Shown: positions 1 through 28,770 of the stretch, one piece after another | Layout of the letters: the number at the start of each line of letters is the position of its first letter | Position numbering within the stretch: position 1 is the first letter of the stretch | From: Actinomycetota bacterium | Lineage (GTDB): Bacteria > Actinomycetota > Acidimicrobiia > Spongiisociales > UBA4744 | Assembly: GCA_013152275.1 (NCBI GenBank) | Contig: JAADGS010000018.1 | Coordinates: 11,896 to 75,895 of the forward strand | Direction: 5' to 3' | DNA: 64,000 nucleotides | Made by a program: the position numbers and the translations under genes | Notes under the pieces: generated by a model | Told to the model about the DNA's origin: nothing | Databases searched by the model: none | Seen by the model: the letters and a program-made list of their open reading frames with translations, nothing else

Positions 1-3
1 CAC

Positions 4-56
4 TGAACCCAGGGCTCAGGGGGGTCGTGACGACGCATACGAGCCCTGGGTTCAAC
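4..56. repeat. REP-like nested palindromic element, copy A (TGAACCCAGGGCTC...GAGCCCTGGGTTCAAC with inner GTCGTGACGAC hairpin)
   Basis: Perfect ~14-16 bp terminal inverted repeats plus an inner 5-bp-stem palindrome. Highly similar copies at 7197-7248, 8002-8056, 20510-20563 and 20581-20634. Lies just downstream of the xylB 3' end. Confidence 0.8.
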
Positions 57-7157: not shown

Positions 7158-7196
7158 TTCGGGGTCTGCAGATAGGCCAAGAGGGCCCATACCTGC

Positions 7197-7248
7197 GAAC
7201 CCTGGGTTCGTAGGGGTCGTGGCGACCCCCCTGAGCCCAGGGTTCAAC
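7197..7248. repeat. REP-like palindromic element, copy B (inverted relative to copy C)
   Basis: GAACCCTGGGTTCGTAGGGGTCGTGGCGACCCCCCTGAGCCCAGGGTTCAAC. Essentially the reverse complement of copy C. Confidence 0.8.
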
Positions 7249-7251
7249 GTT

Positions 7252-7935
7252 TTAGCGGGTTCGGAGGTCTTTTGGCAGGTGTTCTCTGTCGTTGAAGGTG
7301 CGGAGCGAGAAGACGTGCCCACCGGCGAGATTGATTGCCCGGAGGCGTGCGATCGAGGCGTGATACAGGATGAATCGTTCCCACTCCCACGGGGTCGGGT
7401 CTGCGCCGAGGAGGAATCCGAGCGCCACCGCATTCGTGCCGCCATGTGCCACGATCACGACCCTTCCGGGCTCACCGGAGAAACGCCAGAGGTGTCGGTG
7501 CGCCGGCTCGGGTCGAATCCCGCGCTCGTCGAGAATGCGGAGCAGCGCGTTCGTGACCCGCTCGTGAAAGTCCCGGAAGCTCTCGCCACCTTCGATGCCG
7601 TTCCACCACTCTTCGGGGGAACGGTCACGACCCTCGGTGAAGATACGCTGCACGGTCGCCTCGAGCATGCCGGACCAATCCGGCATGTGGATCTCGACCA
7701 GGTCGGGGATCGTCACCGGTTCGATACCGGTCAACGCGGCGAGGGGCTCGGCAGTCTCCTGGGATCGGATGGCCGGTGAGACGAGGATTTCGCGAACCGG
7801 CCGTTCCTCGGCGGCGAGGCGCTCTGCAGTGAGCAACGCCTGGCGCCTTCCGAGTTCGGTCAAGTGGGGGTCGATCTGGGACACGCCATCGACCGCCCAC
7901 CTCGGTTGGCCGTGTCGTATGAAGACCAGTTCCAT
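7252..7935 (-). CDS. histidine phosphatase family protein (phosphoglycerate-mutase-like)
   Basis: MELVFIRHGQP (RHG catalytic motif) and a PGM-like fold. The ORF-track N-extension (MNPGFVGVVATPLSPGFN) is a translation of the REP element and is not real. Confidence 0.8.
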   Translation of the reverse strand: MELVFIRHGQPRWAVDGVSQIDPHLTELGRRQALLTAERLAAEERPVREILVSPAIRSQETAEPLAALTGIEPVTIPDLVEIHMPDWSGMLEATVQRIFTEGRDRSPEEWWNGIEGGESFRDFHERVTNALLRILDERGIRPEPAHRHLWRFSGEPGRVVIVAHGGTNAVALGFLLGADPTPWEWERFILYHASIARLRAINLAGGHVFSLRTFNDREHLPKDLRTR

Positions 7936-8001
7936 CGGCGGGAGGTTAGGCCCAAGTTCGTGTTTCGACGTACCGTATCCCGGCTCGAGACCGCTGCTGC
8001 G

Positions 8002-8056
8002 GTTGAACCCAGGGCTCAGGGGGGTCGCCACGACCCCTACGAACCCTGGGTTCAAC
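8002..8056. repeat. REP-like palindromic element, copy C
   Basis: GTTGAACCCAGGGCTCAGGGGGGTCGCCACGACCCCTACGAACCCTGGGTTCAAC. Confidence 0.8.
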
Positions 8057-19277: not shown

Positions 19278-20513
19278 ATGGAAATCGTCTTCCTTCGCCA
19301 CGGTGAGTCGACCGGCAACGCTTCGGGCCTGATCCAGGGGCGCGGCTCCAGTCCCCTGTCCGAAAGGGGCATGGCGCAGGCCGAAGTGGTGGCCCGACGC
19401 CTCACTCGAGGCAGGCCGTTCGATCTGATCGTCAGTTCGGACATGGAGCGAGCGGTGCAAACGGTCGGTGCGCTCGGTCTCCCGTTCGAACGCGACGCAG
19501 CATGGCGGGAGATGGATCTGGGTGCGTGGGATGGTGTGCCGATCACGGAGGTGGCCAAGCGCTTTCCCGAAGAGCTGGCCGCACTGCGGCGCGGAGATCC
19601 GGTGCCGATCGGGGGTACCGGGGAGACGTTCCCCGAGTTCACGGCCAGAGTCCGCGGCGCAATCGAGCGTCTCGTCGAGAAGATGGAAGGGAATGGACGT
19701 GTCCTCGTCTCGGCGCACGGTGGGGTCATCGAGCGAGTCATGGCCATCGTGATCGGCCGACCGCGTGCGGTTGCGTTCGCGGGTCGGGTGGCCAACACTT
19801 CGCTGACGACGGTTTCCGTGCGACCCTCTGGGATGCGTGTCGACCACTACAACGACACCACACACCTCGGGCCGGTCTCCGGATGGGCGGCCGAGCGTCT
19901 CGCCGCGGGGGATACGGTCGTCGCTCTCGTCCGCCACGGGCAGACCGCCGCCAACGATTCGGGCATCTGGCAAGGCCACTCGGACGGCGGCATCGATGAG
20001 GAGGGCAGGCGTCAGGCGACCCGATTGGCCGGCTGGCATGGGACCTTCGAAACGCTGTACTCGTCACCGCTCGGGCGGGCGCTCGAGACGGCTGCCCTGT
20101 TGCGCGCGGATGGCGTCCCCGTGGTCGTGCCCGGTTTGATGGAGCTGGGGATGGGGAAGTGGGAGGGGCACACCGTCGAGGAGATCAAGGCCGGGTGGCC
20201 CGGCGCCTGGCGGGCGATCTACGACGAAGGGGAGGACATTCCCAGGGGCGGTGACGGAGAGACGTGGAGTGGGATGGTTGCCAGGGTGTCCGAGGCGATC
20301 GGCGATATCGCTCGAGCGCATCAGGGCCGGCTCATCGGGGTGGTTTCGCACGGCGCCGCGATCCGAGGGTTCTGCTCGAGCCTCATCGGGTTGGACCATG
20401 AGCGCCGTCAGAGCCTGATCGCTCCGGGCAACACGTCGGTCAGCCACATCGTGTTCGGCGCGGACGGGCCGGTCCTCGCCGACTACAACGTCGGCCCCCT
20501 CCAGGTCACTTGA
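19278..20513 (+). CDS. tandem two-domain histidine phosphatase (two PGM-like domains)
   Basis: Two RHG motifs (IVFLRHGES and ALVRHGQTAAN), each followed by a PGM-like fold. The stop codon TGA at 20511-20513 lies inside REP copy D. Confidence 0.8.
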   Translation: MEIVFLRHGESTGNASGLIQGRGSSPLSERGMAQAEVVARRLTRGRPFDLIVSSDMERAVQTVGALGLPFERDAAWREMDLGAWDGVPITEVAKRFPEELAALRRGDPVPIGGTGETFPEFTARVRGAIERLVEKMEGNGRVLVSAHGGVIERVMAIVIGRPRAVAFAGRVANTSLTTVSVRPSGMRVDHYNDTTHLGPVSGWAAERLAAGDTVVALVRHGQTAANDSGIWQGHSDGGIDEEGRRQATRLAGWHGTFETLYSSPLGRALETAALLRADGVPVVVPGLMELGMGKWEGHTVEEIKAGWPGAWRAIYDEGEDIPRGGDGETWSGMVARVSEAIGDIARAHQGRLIGVVSHGAAIRGFCSSLIGLDHERRQSLIAPGNTSVSHIVFGADGPVLADYNVGPLQVT

Positions 20514-20563
20514 ACCCAGGGCTCGTATGCGTCGTCACGACCCCCCTGAGCCCTGGGTTCAAC
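20510..20563. repeat. REP-like palindromic element, copy D
   Basis: TTGAACCCAGGGCTCGTATGCGTCGTCACGACCCCCCTGAGCCCTGGGTTCAAC. It is the reverse complement of copy A. Confidence 0.85.
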
Positions 20564-20580
20564 GGATGTGGGGTGTGCAC

Positions 20581-20634
20581 TTGAACCCTGGGCTCGTATG
20601 CGTCGTGACGACCCCCCTGAGCCCTGGGTTCAAC
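20581..20634. repeat. REP-like palindromic element, copy E (tandem with D, 17-bp spacer)
   Basis: Near-identical to copy D. Confidence 0.85.
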
Positions 20635-20644
20635 GGATAGGGCG

Positions 20645-23221
20645 TCAGGTTTTGGCGGCGATCCGTTCCCGGCGGAGCTCGAGCAGTTCGGCTGCACGCT
20701 CGATGGTGATCGTTTCGGGATTGTCGCCCTTACGCAGCGAGGCGTTGACCACACCGTCGGTGACGTACGGTCCGAAGCGACCATCCTTGACCACGACCGG
20801 GTTGCCGGAAACCGGGTCGGTCCCGACCTCTCGCAGTGGCGCCGTGGCCGTCCGCTGTCCCCGCCTCCGCTTCGGTTGAGCCAGCAGTGCGATGGCCTCC
20901 TCCAACGTGAGGGTCAGCAGCTGTTCCTCCGATTCCAGGCTGCGAGTCTCCGAGCCCTTCTTGATGAACGGTCCGTACTTGCCGTTGCGGGCCACGATCT
21001 CCGCACCATCGGACGGGTCGACGCCGACGACGCGAGGCAGGCTCAACAGCTGGAGTGCCTGCTCGAGCGTGACGTCCTCGGGGTTCATCGTCTTGAAGAG
21101 CGAGGCCCGTTTCGGTTTCGTCGTGCCATCTTGCTCTCCAAGCTGGACGTACGGCCCGAATCTGCCGACCCGCAGGCTGACCTCCAGGCCGGTTTCGGGG
21201 TCCGTTCCGAGCGTGCGCTCGTCGTTGGGTGCGGCGAGCAACTCCAGAGCCTTCTCGACGGTGAGCTCGTCGGGAGGGGTCTCGTCCGGAATCGAGGCCT
21301 TGTCGCCGTCACGTTCCACGTACGGGCCGTACCGGCCGACGCGGGCGACGATCGGAATGCCGTCGGGATCGTCGCCGATCGGGATCGATCCGATCTCCCT
21401 CGGGTCGATCTCGTCGAGAGGGCCGCTCACCATCGTCTTGAGACCGACGGAACCGTTCCCGAAGTAGAACTTCGTCAGCCACGGGCGCGCCTCCTCTTCT
21501 CCACGGGCGATGCGGTCGAGGTCGCTCTCCATCCGGGCGGTGAACGCGTAATCGATCAGGCTGGAGAAGTGCCGCTCCAGCAGCGTGACCACGGCGAACG
21601 CCGTAAACGTCGGGATCAGGGCGGAGCCACGTTTCCACACGTAGCCACGGTCCTGGATGGTCGAGATGATCGACGCGTAGGTCGAAGGGCGGCCGACACC
21701 GAGTTCCTCGAGCCGGCGAATCAGGGAGGCCTCCGTGAATCGAGCCGGCGCCTTGGTCTCGTGCCCCTTCGGTTCCATCGCGACGATCGCGAGTCGCTGT
21801 TCTTCCTCGAGCCGTGGCAGGCGCCGCTCCTCGTCGTCCCGTTGGGCGTCGGGGCTGTCGCTGCCGGCCACATAGACCTTCAAGAAACCCGGGAACGTGA
21901 TCACCCTGCCGGTCTGGACGAAGCCGGCGGTGCGCCCATCGGACGTGTCGGCCTCGAGGCGGATCTGGACCGATTCGCCGGCAGCGTCGGTCATCTGCGA
22001 AGCGACGGTTCGCTTCCAGATCAGGTCGTAGAGCCGGGCCTCGTCCGAACCGACGTGCCGTTCGACCTCCGACGGGGAGCGGAAGGAATCTCCCGCGGGG
22101 CGGATCGCTTCGTGTGCCTCTTGGGCGTTCTTGACTTTGTTGACATAGATCCGGGGCTTCTTCGGAAGGTAGGCCGACCCGAACTCGTCGGCGATGAGCC
22201 GCCGTGCGGCACTCAGCGCGGCTTCCGAGAGCGCCGTGCTGTCGGTACGCATATAGGTGATGAACCCGTTCTCGTAGAGACGTTGCGCGGCCCGCATCGT
22301 TCGCGAAGCCGAGAAACGCAGCTTTCTGCCGGCCTCCTGCTGCAACGTCGACGTGCGAAACGGCGGATACGGGGACCGGTGATACGGCTTGCTCTCGACC
22401 GAGCGGACGATCGCCTCGGCGCCTTCGAGGGCGTCGGCGAGGATCTGCGCCGCAGCCTCGTCGAGAACGAGCGCTTGCGGGTTGGTGAGGTTCGCCTCCG
22501 CATCGAAGTCCTTGCCGGATGCGACCGGTTTGCCGTCCAGCTTCGTCAGCGGTGCAGTGAATGGAGCGCCTTCGGGCGGCTGGAACGTGCCGAGCAGATC
22601 CCAGTACGACGCGGATCGGAAGGCGATCCGCTGACGTTCGCGCTCGACGACGATGCGTACCGCGACGCTCTGCACCCGGCCTGCCGACAGCTTCGGCTGC
22701 ACCTTACGCCACAGCACCGGGCTCACTTCATAGCCGAAGAGACGGTCGAGGATGCGTCGAGCTTCTTGCGCGTCGACGAGTCGCGTGTCCAGTTCTCTGG
22801 GGTGCTCGAGCGCTTCCGTGATGGCGCGCTTGGTGATCTCATGGAAGACCATGCGTTTGACGGGCACCTTGGGCTTGAGCACCTGGAGGAGATGCCAGGC
22901 GATCGACTCGCCTTCACGGTCCTCGTCGGTTGCGAGGTACACCTCGTCCGCACCGGCGAGAGCGGCCTTGAGTTTGCGCACCTGTTCACGCTTCGCCGCG
23001 GGGACGATGTAGAGCGGCGCAAAGTCCTTCTCCACGTTGACGCCCAGTCGAGCCCACGACTCCTCGCGGTACTTCTTGGGGATCTCCGAAGCCTTCGAAG
23101 GAAGGTCGCGGATATGGCCTATCGAGGACTCGACGGAGTATCCCGAGCCGAGGTACCCGGAGATGGTTCGAGCCTTCGCGGGTGACTCGACGATGATGAG
23201 TGGTTTGGACACGAGGGCCAT
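20645..23221 (-). CDS. topA: DNA topoisomerase I
   Basis: Toprim N-terminus LIIVESPAKARTI, the catalytic Tyr region, and C-terminal repeated GRFGPYV motifs. N-extension to 24043 rejected. Confidence 0.95.
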   Translation of the reverse strand: MALVSKPLIIVESPAKARTISGYLGSGYSVESSIGHIRDLPSKASEIPKKYREESWARLGVNVEKDFAPLYIVPAAKREQVRKLKAALAGADEVYLATDEDREGESIAWHLLQVLKPKVPVKRMVFHEITKRAITEALEHPRELDTRLVDAQEARRILDRLFGYEVSPVLWRKVQPKLSAGRVQSVAVRIVVERERQRIAFRSASYWDLLGTFQPPEGAPFTAPLTKLDGKPVASGKDFDAEANLTNPQALVLDEAAAQILADALEGAEAIVRSVESKPYHRSPYPPFRTSTLQQEAGRKLRFSASRTMRAAQRLYENGFITYMRTDSTALSEAALSAARRLIADEFGSAYLPKKPRIYVNKVKNAQEAHEAIRPAGDSFRSPSEVERHVGSDEARLYDLIWKRTVASQMTDAAGESVQIRLEADTSDGRTAGFVQTGRVITFPGFLKVYVAGSDSPDAQRDDEERRLPRLEEEQRLAIVAMEPKGHETKAPARFTEASLIRRLEELGVGRPSTYASIISTIQDRGYVWKRGSALIPTFTAFAVVTLLERHFSSLIDYAFTARMESDLDRIARGEEEARPWLTKFYFGNGSVGLKTMVSGPLDEIDPREIGSIPIGDDPDGIPIVARVGRYGPYVERDGDKASIPDETPPDELTVEKALELLAAPNDERTLGTDPETGLEVSLRVGRFGPYVQLGEQDGTTKPKRASLFKTMNPEDVTLEQALQLLSLPRVVGVDPSDGAEIVARNGKYGPFIKKGSETRSLESEEQLLTLTLEEAIALLAQPKRRRGQRTATAPLREVGTDPVSGNPVVVKDGRFGPYVTDGVVNASLRKGDNPETITIERAAELLELRRERIAAKT

Positions 23222-23342
23222 GATTATCAGGAATTGGGAGGAGAAGTCAAGGTGGTTGTGCTTTCTCGGTCGTCGCCGGCGTCGTCGATGACGTGTTTCG
23301 ATCATGGTCGCCAGGTCGAACGGGCCGAGTATCGTGCTGGGC

Positions 23343-24728
23343 ATGGAAAGGAAGGGTGACCCCACCCCGGGCGCTCTCGGCCTGGTGCGTCGCGGTCCGT
23401 TCGCGCGTCTCTGGTGGGCCGGTCTGGCGTCCAGCTTCGGCGACTGGGTCGCCCTGTTCGCGACGATCGCTCTCGCCGATGCGATCGGCGGGGTAACGGG
23501 CATCCTGGTCCCGTTGACCGCCCGGATGCTGCCGGGACTCTTCGGTGCCGCCGCCGGAGTGCTCGCCGACCGGTTCAACCGCAAGGTCACCATGGTCGTG
23601 TGTGACGTCGGCCGGGCGCTGCTCGCCCTGTCGCTGGTGTTCGTCCGGACACTTCCGGAGCTGTTTCTCGTCTCCTTCGCCATGGAGGTGCTGGCGTTGT
23701 TCTGGGGGCCTTCGCGTGAGGCGAGTATCCCGAACCTCGTACCGAAGAAGGTGCTGGTGCGAGCGAACAGCTTGAGTCTGGTCGCGGTGTACGGGACGCT
23801 CCCTGTCGGGTCGGCAGCTTTCTCCATCTTCGCCAGGATCTCCGAGGTGACCCATGTTCTGGGCGCGTTCGGATCGGACACCGGGCTTGCCTTTGCAGTG
23901 GATGCGGTCACGTTCATCTTCTCGGCATCGCTGATCGCAACGATTCCGATTCCGCGTCCCAAAGTCAGCGAAGAGAGGAAGGCCCAAGGCAAGCTGGACT
24001 GGAAACTGCCGTTCAGGGACGTCATGGACGGGATCCGATTCATTCTTCGAGAACGTTCCGTGAGGAGTGTGATCGGCGGTATCGCAACCGCCCTGTTCGG
24101 CGCCGGCGTCTTCTTCGCCCTGGGTCAGCCGTTCTCGAGCTCCGTGCTCAATGCCGGAAGTTCCGGATTCGGGATTCTCATCACGGCGCTCGGAAGCGGC
24201 GTCGGCCTCGGCATGATTGGACTGTCGGCGATGGGGATGCACGACTTTCGTCGGGATGTGGTCTTCGCCCTGAGCCTCGTCGCAACAGGCCTGACCATCA
24301 CCGCTGCGGCGCTCTCTCGGACGATCGCCGGCGCGGCGTTCTGGGCGCTGCTGGCGGGTGCCGGGGCCGGTTCCTCCTACGTCATGGGTTTCACCCATCT
24401 GCACGAGCAGGTCACCGACGAGTTGAGAGGGCGAACGTTCGCTGCCCTCTACACACTCACGCGGACGGCCCTGCTGATCTCGATCACGGCCGCCGCGTTC
24501 GTCGCCGCGATCCTGGACGGAAGACTCCCCGGGATATTCTCCAGCGGAATCCGCAGTGCTCTCGTGCTTGGCGGAGTGGTGGTGGCGTTCGCCGGTGCGA
24601 TTACCTTGTGGAATATGCGTAAGACGTTCTCACGACCCCATATCCCCGAAGATGCTCTGCGTTCTCTCGAAGACGCCTCCGATACGTTCACCTCGATCCG
24701 AGGCCGCCGGCGAAAGGAACGTGAATGA
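23343..24728 (+). CDS. MFS transporter
   Basis: About 12 TM segments. MFS-like loop motif (LADRFNRKV). Start choice (ATG 23343) is uncertain. Confidence 0.7.
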   Translation: MERKGDPTPGALGLVRRGPFARLWWAGLASSFGDWVALFATIALADAIGGVTGILVPLTARMLPGLFGAAAGVLADRFNRKVTMVVCDVGRALLALSLVFVRTLPELFLVSFAMEVLALFWGPSREASIPNLVPKKVLVRANSLSLVAVYGTLPVGSAAFSIFARISEVTHVLGAFGSDTGLAFAVDAVTFIFSASLIATIPIPRPKVSEERKAQGKLDWKLPFRDVMDGIRFILRERSVRSVIGGIATALFGAGVFFALGQPFSSSVLNAGSSGFGILITALGSGVGLGMIGLSAMGMHDFRRDVVFALSLVATGLTITAAALSRTIAGAAFWALLAGAGAGSSYVMGFTHLHEQVTDELRGRTFAALYTLTRTALLISITAAAFVAAILDGRLPGIFSSGIRSALVLGGVVVAFAGAITLWNMRKTFSRPHIPEDALRSLEDASDTFTSIRGRRRKERE

Positions 24729-26407: not shown

Positions 26408-26479
26408 AGCCGGAGCGGGGAATCGAACCCCGGACCTGCTCATTACGAGTGAGCTGCTCTACCGCTGAGCTACTCCGGC
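26408..26479 (-). tRNA. tRNA-Thr (anticodon CGU)
   Basis: Reverse complement reads GCCGGAGTAGCTCAGCGGTAGAGCAGCTCACTCGTAATGAGCAGGTCCGGGGTTCGATTCCCCGCTCCGGCT. Acceptor stem 7 bp, anticodon loop CTCGTAA, TPsiC GGTTCGATTCC. CCA is not encoded. Confidence 0.9.
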
Positions 26480-26678
26480 GCGGCGTGCATCCTAGTGTCT
26501 CGCCAGGCGACCTTTGCGGTGTTCTGTCGGCCGGGAGGGGGTCGGTTGCACGGACGCCGCTCTCGGCCGCCTGCAGCCCCGAGAATGGTTCGTTCTCACC
26601 GAGGGATGCAGGTACTGTCACGTTGCCGACGGTGTGGGGAGGGATGTGGCCGATCAGAAGAGCTTCGAGGAGGACGCG

Positions 26679-27212
26679 ATGCGGTTCGCTCCGCAGCTCT
26701 ACTCGGCTGCGCTGCGCATGACGCGTAACCCTGCCGACGCCGAGGATCTCGTTCAGGAGACGTTTCTGAAGGCCTACCGCGCCTATCAGACCTTCACGTC
26801 GGGAACGAACCTGAAGGCGTGGCTGTACCGGATCCTCACGAACACCTACATCAATCGGTATCGCAAGCAGATGCGCCGTCCGACCGAGACAGACCTGGGT
26901 GACGTCGAGAACCTGTATCTGTACCGGAGGATCGGAGATTCGGGCCAGGTCACTCGCAGTGCCGAAGAGGAGGTCCTCGAAGGCTTCGTCGACGCCGACG
27001 TCAAAGCGGCGATCGAGTCGCTCCCCGAGCATTTCCGGCTTCCGGTTCTTCTCGCCGACGTCGAGGGTTTCTCCTACAAGGAGATCGCCGAGATCATGGA
27101 TGTGCCGATCGGGACGGTGATGTCCAGGCTCCATCGTGGAAGAAAAGCCCTGGAGCGAGCGTTGTGGAGTTTTGCACGGGAACACGGACTCTCCGGGACA
27201 GACCATGAGTAA
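26679..27212 (+). CDS. sigH: ECF sigma factor SigH/SigR family
   Basis: [19 protein letters not shown] and [15 protein letters not shown] closely match mycobacterial SigH. GAGGAGG SD 5 nt before the ATG at 26679. The longer ORF from 26514 lacks an RBS. Confidence 0.85.
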
Positions 27213-27453
27213 GCGCAGCTGTGAGGAAGCGATCGTCAATGTCTACCTGTATCTCGACAATGAGCTCGGAAGGGTGCATACGGCCAAGATCAGACATCAC
27301 CTCCGACACTGCAATGGATGCCTGGGAGCGTTCCGGTTCGAAGAACACCTGAGGATCGTCATTCGCGATCGAGTGCAGGAAGAGCCGAGACAGGAGGTCC
27401 TGGACCGCTTGTGGGCCTTCCTGAAGGACCAGGAGCCGGGTTTCGGAGACTGA
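27205..27453 (+). CDS. rshA: anti-sigma factor, ZAS family (RshA/RsrA-like)
   Basis: 82 aa. HLRHCNGC (HxxxCxxC zinc/redox motif). 8-nt overlap with the sigH stop. Confidence 0.85.
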
Positions 27454-27588
27454 GTCACCGGTTGCCCGTTGCCGGTTCTCGGCTGCGGGCCGCCGCCCGC
27501 ACTCGCCACGTGTCTCATATCTGATGCCGTCGCCCGTGCAAGAGGTGGGCGCGGGTCTTGCGGCCCATGTGGTCGTATCGGGAGTGTC

Positions 27589-27705
27589 GTGAGTCGACGG
27601 CAGATCATCTGGGTCGAATCCGAGGGGACCATCGGGTTGATCTGTGCCGATGGGGAATGCACGGTCGTCCAGATGCGTGCCAGGTATTGCTCGGGGGTCT
27701 CCTAG
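27589..27705 (+). CDS. hypothetical small Cys-rich protein (38 aa)
   Basis: GGGAG SD 4 nt before the GTG start. Sequence MSRRQIIWVESEGTIGLICADGECTVVQMRARYCSGVS. No family recognised. Confidence 0.3.
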   Translation: MSRRQIIWVESEGTIGLICADGECTVVQMRARYCSGVS

Positions 27706-27717
27706 GCTGCACCCGTC

Positions 27718-28770
27718 GTGACTGCGACTCAGATTCCGTGGGCTGTCTCCACCCGGCTCGCCTCGACCGTTGCCGGGCACCACCCCCTCGAGGGGTCCTA
27801 TCATCAGCGCCTTCTCGAGCTGCAGGCACCCGAATTCGTCGCACGCGCCGAGCCTCTCGTCGCGGAGGCGACCGGGCTCGCCTCGACAGGTGTCCCTGAG
27901 GTCCGGGTCGTCACCAGGACCGAGTGGGCCGAGCGCAACGTCGCCTTCTTCGCCCATCTCATGGACTCCGTCGAGGATCGCCTCTCCGAACGGCTGTCCC
28001 GGTTCGGGCCCCTCGGACAGGGTGCAGGCTATCTGGCCCGGAGAGCCGTGGCCGCAGAGACCGGAGCGCTGCTTGGTGTGATGGCCCGACGCGTCCTCGG
28101 CCAGTACGAACTCGCCCTGCCCACCAAGTTGGACGGGGACACGGTCTATCTCGTCGGCGCCAACATCCTCTCGCTCGAGAGAAGCCATCAGTTCCGTCCT
28201 CTCGAATTCAGACTGTGGCTGGCGCTCCACGAATGCACGCATCGGCTCCAGTTCGTGGGGATTCCCTGGATGCGCGCCTACTTCCTCGATCTCGTGAAGG
28301 CGTTGATCTCCTCGGCGGAACCGGAGCCCGGCCGATTGGTCCGCGTTGCCGCCGAGCTTCGAGACGCAGCGATGCAGGGTCGGCCGCTGGTCGGTGAGAC
28401 CGGCCTGTTCGGGCTTTTTGCGAACGATGGGCAGCGGGCGCTCATCGACAAGGTTCAGGCGTTGATGTCGCTGCTCGAAGGCCACGGTCACGTGATCATG
28501 GACCGGATCGGCGAAGGAATGCTCGTGACCCAGGCCCGCATGTCGAGCATCCTCAAACAGCGAAGAAACGATCCGCGTACGGCCGCGTTCTTCCGGTTGA
28601 CCGGCATGGAGATGAAGTTCAAGCAATACGAGATGGGGGAGCGCTTCGTCAAGATCGTCGAGCGTGAAGCCGGATGGGACGCCATCGGCATTGCCTGGCG
28701 AGGTCCCGAGTTCCTCCCGACCCGCGACGAGATCGACGAGCCGATCCGATGGCTGACTCGCGTCGCTTGA
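27718..28770 (+). CDS. zinc-dependent metalloprotease-like conserved actinobacterial protein (HExxH; DUF2342-like, Rv3626c-like)
   Basis: LALHECTHRLQF (HExxH). Positioned upstream of tilS as in mycobacteria. Confidence 0.7.
   Translation: MTATQIPWAVSTRLASTVAGHHPLEGSYHQRLLELQAPEFVARAEPLVAEATGLASTGVPEVRVVTRTEWAERNVAFFAHLMDSVEDRLSERLSRFGPLGQGAGYLARRAVAAETGALLGVMARRVLGQYELALPTKLDGDTVYLVGANILSLERSHQFRPLEFRLWLALHECTHRLQFVGIPWMRAYFLDLVKALISSAEPEPGRLVRVAAELRDAAMQGRPLVGETGLFGLFANDGQRALIDKVQALMSLLEGHGHVIMDRIGEGMLVTQARMSSILKQRRNDPRTAAFFRLTGMEMKFKQYEMGERFVKIVEREAGWDAIGIAWRGPEFLPTRDEIDEPIRWLTRVA

Follow-up and report, generated by a model that had tools for sequence, protein, structure and literature searches.

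A family of REP-like palindromic repeats in Acidimicrobiia and its association with a gene for an AbiEi-type protein with a predicted nuclease domain

This study concerns a nested palindrome of ~55 bp that is present in exactly five copies, named A to E, on a 64-kb stretch of DNA (the window; 65% G+C) from an Actinomycetota bacterium of the class Acidimicrobiia. The original prediction described these copies as resembling repetitive extragenic palindromes (REPs). Their number and size were borne out, with coordinates corrected by 1-3 nt, and the elements indeed belong to an extragenic, hairpin-forming repeat family. The family extends throughout the class, and we show here that it has a near-obligate association with one conserved gene, whose product combines a DNA-binding module with a predicted nuclease domain. 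We favor the reading, to which we assign a probability of about 0.6, that the elements are class-wide, REP-like non-coding repeats of Acidimicrobiia with a cognate, low-copy chromosomal gene for an AbiEi protein fused to a Vsr-like nuclease, and that this gene is itself bounded by elements.

A gene bounded by the repeats

Species-representative genomes were scanned with a two-box pattern in which the gap was left free at 15-35 nt (a box spacing of 28-48). The pattern was found at a minimum of 120 loci in at least 55 assemblies, nearly all labelled Acidimicrobiia or Actinomycetota. Family statistics were taken from the listed loci (855 kb, in 8-kb blocks rather than whole genomes) plus the window. 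The family boxes are 13 nt long (GAACCCWGGGTTC), have a CCWGG core and are separated by 22-23 nt; although the pattern permitted 28-48, the spacing of neighbouring boxes was 35-36 nt in 145 pairs.

Genes bracketed by two elements ~1 kb apart encode, in four assemblies, one shared protein of ~300 aa. A profile search revealed a fifth copy of this gene, and all five copies in the listed element-found loci are bracketed by elements. As an independent test, 80 metagenome loci were found through peptide patterns of the protein alone (36-74% identity). Counting as a box any match with at most 2 mismatches within 250 bp of the gene, and considering the 70 loci with enough flank, a box was present upstream of the gene in 66 and downstream in 67, while the background in the same loci was 31 boxes per 249 kb (0.12 per kb). 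Locus L129 is an apparent exception, in which the flanking repeats are present and their boxes have diverged.

Measured from box to box, the median unit is 1063 bp long. The units hold a single gene with 50-60-bp terminal inverted repeats of family box and spacer, and the inverted ends of most units are made up of an outer box, a spacer and a variant inner box. A model in which the gene interrupts a box at its middle was rejected: the gene-proximal variant box GAGCCC-RCRGAAY is also present in gene-less arrays (L047, L059, L077, L099, L180). In two assemblies, GWP04 and CBEVHI, the spacer type that flanks the nuclease gene is that of the dispersed copies of the same genome. The unit was found in at least three genomic contexts across lineages. 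Neighbouring genes are those for an ABC transporter and a 2-oxoacid dehydrogenase in L212, topA and His_Phos in L101, and pth and mfd in L216. Most protein clusters are represented by 1-2 contigs each; many Logan contigs are about one unit long, and Logan contigs break at unit ends. Conserved leader motifs were also seen 25-40 nt before the nuclease ATG (L122-L212); one subfamily has CAAGGGGGTTCC, another TGTCACACCC.

Several results bear on the nature of the partner protein. Pfam reported an AbiEi_4 match, and the AbiEi models of PADLOC matched residues ~6-200 with E = 1e-19 to 1e-31. The AlphaFold (AF2) model of representative P0117 has a predicted local distance difference test score (pLDDT) of 91.3. 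Foldseek related the protein to AbiEi (6y8q) at E = 2e-6 and, by template modelling (TM) score, to the Vsr-like catalytic domain of I-Bth0305I (3r3p, TM 0.76) and to a DUF559 protein (3hrl, TM 0.74). Residues D233, E244, D246 and H251 are invariant across 71 sequences. We conclude that the protein joins a DNA-binding module of the AbiEi type, with winged helices, to a predicted Vsr/DUF559-like (PD-(D/E)xK) nuclease. None of the units, which are single-gene, has an adjacent gene for an AbiEii (DUF1814 nucleotidyltransferase) toxin.

These AbiEi+Vsr-like fusions are a large, unstudied protein family. It numbers 3170 representatives at 50% identity (E <= 1e-30), NCBIfam has no family for the nuclease, and among the papers retrieved on DUF559, AbiEi_4 and MTES_1575 no title or abstract ties these proteins to repeats. 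Three distant members (L216, L218 and L219) were all found to be flanked by different ~50-nt palindromes, which suggests that protein-specific repeats occur throughout the nuclease family. The palindromes at these three loci begin and end GTTCTGG...CCAGAAC.

Sequence and structure of the elements

The positions, strands and contexts of the five window copies and of the phosphatase genes beside them are as follows.

2..56, plus strand: copy A, subtype AGGGGGGTCGTGACGACGCATAC, 57.1 bits with the covariance model; 67 nt past the stop of an FGGY kinase gene (123-1619, minus), the left flank being the window edge
7194..7248, minus strand: copy B, subtype AGGGGGGTCGCCACGACCCCTAC, 58.6 bits with the covariance model; between the convergent SDR gene (stop 7157) and His_Phos_1 gene (stop 7252)
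7252..7935, minus strand: His_Phos_1 gene, 227 aa, bracketed by copies B and C; context, outside the element system
8002..8056, plus strand: copy C, subtype shared with B, 59.7 bits with the covariance model; 16 nt past the stop of a 4HBT thioesterase gene (8072) and 66 nt from the His_Phos_1 start (7935)
19278..20513, plus strand: two-domain His_Phos_1 gene (His_Phos2), stop codon partly supplied by copy D
20509..20563, minus strand: copy D, 57.4 bits with the covariance model
20561..20582: D-E linker, 22 nt between the D and E boxes
20580..20634, minus strand: copy E, direct repeat of D, 55.5 bits; 11 nt from the topA stop (20645)

Each window copy consists of two 13-nt boxes, GAACCCWGGGYTC and GARCCCWGGGTTC, separated by exactly 23 nt. 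A 13-mer search of the window gave 20 strand-matches at 10 box positions, versus 0.39 expected from shuffles. A covariance model, built from related genomes and run on the window with filters off, gave five hits at 55-60 bits; the next best scored 15 bits. By this model all copies are confined to the first 20.7 kb of the window, and the remaining 43 kb holds none. A stop codon is located just ahead of each of the five copies, and D and E lie between the convergent His_Phos2 and topA genes. A lone palindrome (GGAACCAGGGTTCC, 2930-2942) that scores 10 bits is not a member of the family; it is intergenic, upstream of a gene for a periplasmic sugar-binding protein, and may be an operator.

Each copy forms a long hairpin, with folding energies of -33 to -45 kcal/mol (z-scores from -5 to -7.5); for the D-E tandem the energy is about -81 to -84 kcal/mol. 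The perfect terminal inverted repeats ascribed earlier to all copies exist in A and D only: the outer arms of B and C contain a C.A/G.U position, and in E the box centre is T.T. Likewise, the single inner GTCGT-G-ACGAC hairpin of the original prediction holds for the GTCG/CGAC stem of A, D and E (GTCG-TGA-CGAC...GCATAC) but not for B and C, which carry GGGGTCG-CCA-CGACCCC.

The 135 box clusters of the family, almost all of them intergenic, comprise 106 with two boxes, 23 with three and 6 with four. The spacer of 22-23 nt has a genome-specific sequence and nearly always its own hairpin (5-8 bp); spacer identity is 0.75 within an assembly versus 0.42 between assemblies. In 58 distinct copies 80% of symmetric positions are paired, and the covariation score is 0.261, versus 0.139 for shuffles (0/500 reached the observed value) and 0.06-0.09 for slid controls. 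Position 11 of the box covaries with its partner (positions 11 and 39; Fisher p = 2.6e-11), the pairs being 91 T/A, 20 C/G, 11 C/A and 5 T/G; no covariation was seen at the central W of the box. The clade of the window keeps the frame AGGGG-[5-bp stem]-[3-nt loop]-[stem]-CTAC, and the stem varies by compensated substitutions (GGTCG/CGACC, TACCC/GGGGA, TGCGC/GCGCA, TACCG/CGGTA). The window shares a GTAG/GTAT beside the inner hairpin with BMS3Abin02, GWP04 and CBEVHI; most other assemblies lack it. An apparent orientation bias (A at the left box centre, T at the right, a C-rich 5' inner arm) was dismissed as an artefact because the palindrome is identical on both strands.

Direct repeats of 3 nt or longer, as expected of target-site duplications, were no commoner at the element ends than in shuffled flanks (offsets 0-8, n = 132). 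At the gathering thresholds of Rfam the window matched one tRNA only, and six related loci matched nothing; the tRNA gene is at 26408-26479 on the minus strand. A full-text literature search for the 13-mer or 15-mer box matched no paper, and we found no paper on palindromic repeats in Acidimicrobiia, nor one that connects Vsr to REP elements. The viral collection IMG/VR gave 3 hits only. These (L213-L215) are related viral contigs of 55-84 kb, each with two box pairs 119 nt apart. Finally, the 97%-identical contigs L017 (1615-2092) and L036 differ by a small gene of ~460 bp whose end is 11 nt from an element; one contig of this pair, labelled Rhodothermales, is probably mis-binned.

The phosphatase genes and the D/E site

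As had been noted, the His_Phos_1 gene is bracketed by the oppositely oriented copies B and C, and the false open reading frame (ORF) extension (LNPGFVGVVATPLSPGFN) is real: the ORF 7252-8055 runs through copy C. The proposal that B and C delimit a mobile phosphatase cassette was not supported. The gene has 953 homologues at E <= 1e-20, mostly of 226-228 aa and 60-92% identical, and its HAD and 4HBT neighbours are retained in relatives L202-L205 at 85-92% identity; an exact look-up of the window phosphatase returned no record. Since homologues are many and the neighbours are kept in relatives, we judge from these comparisons that it is a conserved, non-mobile core gene rather than a cassette. 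The closest genome, "bacterium BMS3Abin02" (L202), is collinear with the window at 86-88% nucleotide identity and has elements at the B and C sites, but with a different, compensated stem. In L205, whose phosphatase is 85% identical, the B-site element is present and the C site is empty, so that this relative keeps the phosphatase without copy C. A reading of the elements as attC sites of an integron cassette was also rejected. The core-site order is reversed (GTTGAAC...GTTCAAC on both strands, as against RYYYAAC...GTTRRRY), other genomes read GCGAAC...GTTCGC, and the phosphatase is a core gene; no search for an integron integrase was made.

BMS3Abin02 differs from the window by a 4.95-kb indel: between His_Phos and SDR it has seven genes (L202 10742-15689; Rce1-like, NUDIX, DUF3303, DSBA, two hypothetical genes and GFO_IDH) that the window lacks (7178-7196). 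The breakpoint coincides, in this single case, with the outer end of copy B.

The two-domain gene ends, as predicted, with a TGA (20511-20513) of which GA are the first two bases of the box of D. Its counterpart in L101 ends ...GPL-TAG, 11 nt before the element; in the window CAG replaces this TAG, and the reading frame continues (VT) to the TGA of the element. Enrichment of the elements near phosphatases, raised as a possibility earlier, was not observed: of the 120 element-found loci listed, the 119 besides the syntenic L101 contain no homologue of either phosphatase. The adjacency of the second phosphatase to D and E is a matter of site history, unrelated to phosphatase biology, and the phosphatases neighbouring the elements are bystanders.

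The history of this site is apparent from relatives. In L101 (TopA 85% identical) and L165 (75%) an element-nuclease-element arrangement occupies exactly the gap where topA and the two-domain phosphatase gene end. It corresponds to the E, 22-nt linker and D of the window, and the position of the linker holds a nuclease gene segment of ~0.95 kb there. Flanking elements in this clade are direct repeats, not inverted ones. The same topA/His_Phos2 site carries one element in L208 (GWP04) and L211 and a three-unit array in L210; the nuclease gene of GWP04 is located elsewhere. Together with the genome-specific spacers and the differing states of the B and C sites, these differences show turnover of the elements within genomes. 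Since relatives carry the nuclease gene at this site and the window does not, D and E border a site in which the gene once resided or could reside.

Some further observations concern this site and its surroundings. The D-E linker in the window (AAGTGCACACCCCACATCCGTT) bears a weak resemblance to the leader motif TGTCACACCC. L165 alone among the relatives has a minus-strand ORF between topA and the nuclease unit (2090-2870), which from its translation looks, by eye, like a nucleotidyltransferase. The topA ORF of the window (20645-24043, minus strand) has 1132 aa, with Toprim from residue 282; the proteins of relatives have 855-861 aa, and the N-terminal part of the ORF is probably an over-extension. 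In other lineages (L152, L169, L172) a nuclease unit is flanked by homologues of two window genes, 26646-27212 and 27718-28770. In this part of the window (26646-28770) both the nuclease gene and the element are missing.

Explanations and comparison with known systems

The favored reading, repeats with a cognate nuclease gene, comes with a proposed mechanism that would run as follows. The nuclease protein would bind the boxes or the hairpin via its AbiEi module and would nick or cut at the bound element. Repair or copying from other copies would then spread the elements and homogenise them within a genome, in a manner resembling homing or gene conversion, or RAYT-style hairpin handling (RAYT, REP-associated tyrosine transposase). 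Copies would survive mainly just past stop codons, positions at which they would be nearly harmless and might double as transcript-end hairpins. Several points weigh against this reading. The Pfam nuclease hits, REase_MTES_1575 and DUF559 (PF18741, PF04480), fall short of the gathering thresholds (26-29 bits versus 38.2, and 20.4 versus 20.6), so the nuclease call rests mainly on the fold and the conserved residues. The covariation counts given above are uncorrected for shared ancestry. The units hold their position over long divergence, which fits a resident gene and leaves its benefit unexplained. Lastly, the window, with its five elements, contains no nuclease gene or pseudogene (best tblastn E = 0.015).

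Alternatively, the box-gene-box unit could be an autonomous transposon akin to an insertion sequence (IS), with the nuclease as transposase, and the 55-bp copies could be deletion derivatives of the kind known as miniature inverted-repeat transposable elements (MITEs), moved by cut-and-paste or copy-and-paste transposition. We consider this unlikely. The ~1.06-kb unit, with its 50-60-bp terminal inverted repeats of the same box and spacer, is what such a transposon would look like, and its several genomic contexts and the Logan contigs that end at unit boundaries fit as well; but target-site duplications of at least 3 bp are lacking at every offset, and the gene, unlike typical ISs, is low-copy and keeps its synteny over 70-90% nucleotide divergence. 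The direct, not inverted, orientation of the flanking elements in the clade of the window also argues against this alternative. To our knowledge, no characterised transposase has an AbiEi plus Vsr-like nuclease architecture.

It is also quite unlikely that the elements are mainly transcript-end structures selected by the host, either bidirectional terminators without a U-tract or 3'-end protection against exonucleases, and that the nuclease link is secondary. Genes were called with a self-trained codon-model caller, which covered 90% of the sequence. The elements face a gene's 3' end in 112 of 135 cases, 80 of which start -5 to +30 nt from the stop; seven stop codons are formed as T + GAaccc, as in copy D. 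Among 122 classified elements, 45 (37%) have convergent flanks, 62 tandem flanks and 15 (12%) divergent flanks, versus 12%, 55% and 33% of element-free intergenic bases, respectively. This position 5-30 nt past stops and the enrichment between convergent genes, together with the high stability of the hairpins, are in line with a role at transcript ends, but the 15 elements between divergent genes are not. Canonical intrinsic terminators do not exceed chance in the window's first 20 kb (7 versus 8.6 expected), which makes another 3'-end signal plausible. Yet the hairpins lack a U-tract: no T-run follows the hairpin in 28 oriented copies, and a terminator scan called no element. Selection at the RNA level was undetectable, because in 43 tandem contexts G.U did not significantly outnumber A.C on the sense strand (62 versus 53, p = 0.46) and sense-strand folding was no better than antisense (Wilcoxon p = 0.34). 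Moreover, a terminator needs no class-conserved 13-mer, genome-wide identical spacers or tandem arrays, and the near-universal flanking of one gene family would be left unexplained. A second role of the elements as transcript-end hairpins is possible.

That the elements are classical REPs or REPINs (REP doublets forming hairpins) moved by a RAYT, a Y1 HUH transposase, encoded outside the sequence covered is very improbable: the overall anatomy is REP-like, GTAG/GTAT stands beside the inner hairpin in the clade of the window, and RAYTs, which occur as single copies and are tied to REPs/REPINs (PMC5581495), could escape a search of 919 kb, but phmmer with E. coli RayT gave no match at E <= 10 in 8643 ORFs from these 919 kb, the element-flanked gene is of a different family, GTAG is missing in most other genomes, and no paper was found combining REP, RAYT and Actinobacteria. 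The RAYT partner suggested by the original prediction was thus not found in the sequence searched. The repeats work like a REP system, yet lie outside the REP/RAYT family.

Returning to the reading of repeats with a cognate nuclease, we put forward tentatively, at somewhat less than even odds, a wider proposal. The AbiEi+Vsr-like fusions would form a second, RAYT-independent class of long-lived partnerships between repeat and enzyme, in which the nuclease of each lineage would recognise a ~50-nt hairpin repeat of its own, have one copy on either side, and spread or homogenise hundreds of copies by nuclease-initiated copying. If so, the REP/RAYT lifestyle, in which hundreds of short palindromes accompany one resident single-copy enzyme gene, would have arisen with an unrelated enzyme, in Actinomycetota. 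Thousands of AbiEi/DUF559 proteins annotated as "hypothetical" or "AbiEi antitoxin domain" would gain a concrete candidate DNA substrate, and the partner protein is a candidate sequence-specific nuclease. In practical terms, the repeats supply stop codons, cause ORFs to be falsely extended, lie at indel breakpoints and interrupt metagenome assemblies where units end.

Several known systems share part of these features. In E. coli, bacterial interspersed mosaic elements (BIMEs) and REP hairpins in 3' untranslated regions are located behind genes and between convergent genes, and can stabilise upstream mRNA. The elements studied here resemble BIMEs in lying behind genes and between convergent genes and differ in that no RNA-strand bias was detected. 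They have the G+C-rich hairpin of an intrinsic (rho-independent) terminator and, unlike it, no U-tract. As in pairs of ISs and MITEs, a coding unit of ~1.06 kb and non-coding copies of ~55 bp share terminal sequences; unlike such pairs, there is no target-site duplication and no recognised transposase, and the coding unit is low-copy and syntenic.

CCWGG, the core of the box, is the sequence context of E. coli Vsr. The C-terminal ~100 aa of the partner protein have the same fold as I-Bth0305I (PDB 3r3p), with conserved acidic and histidine residues, and by analogy a selfish, homing-type lifestyle of the nuclease is plausible. In contrast to I-Bth0305I and the Vsr/DUF559 nucleases, it is not encoded by an intron or intein, is fused to a full AbiEi and is taken to be associated with hundreds of scattered sites. 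Over its N-terminal ~200 aa the protein matches the two-domain AbiEi antitoxin of the type IV AbiE system (PDB 6y8q; PMC7319586), and AbiEi proteins bind inverted repeats in DNA (PMC7319586). Unlike in AbiE type IV systems, no AbiEii (DUF1814) toxin gene adjoins, and a nuclease domain is fused at the C-terminal end of AbiEi.

The closest known system is the REP/REPIN-RAYT system of Proteobacteria (Bertels & Rainey, PMC3116915; PMC5581495). Both have many short extragenic palindromes that occur as doublets and arrays and form genome-specific sequence populations, both have a low-copy, largely vertically inherited gene flanked by repeats, and neither has a target-site duplication. They differ in that the gene associated with the repeats described here encodes an AbiEi winged helix-turn-helix plus a Vsr/DUF559-like nuclease and not a Y1 HUH tyrosine transposase, in that the outer 13-nt box is conserved class-wide and the inner hairpin alone varies, and in that the hosts are Actinomycetota.

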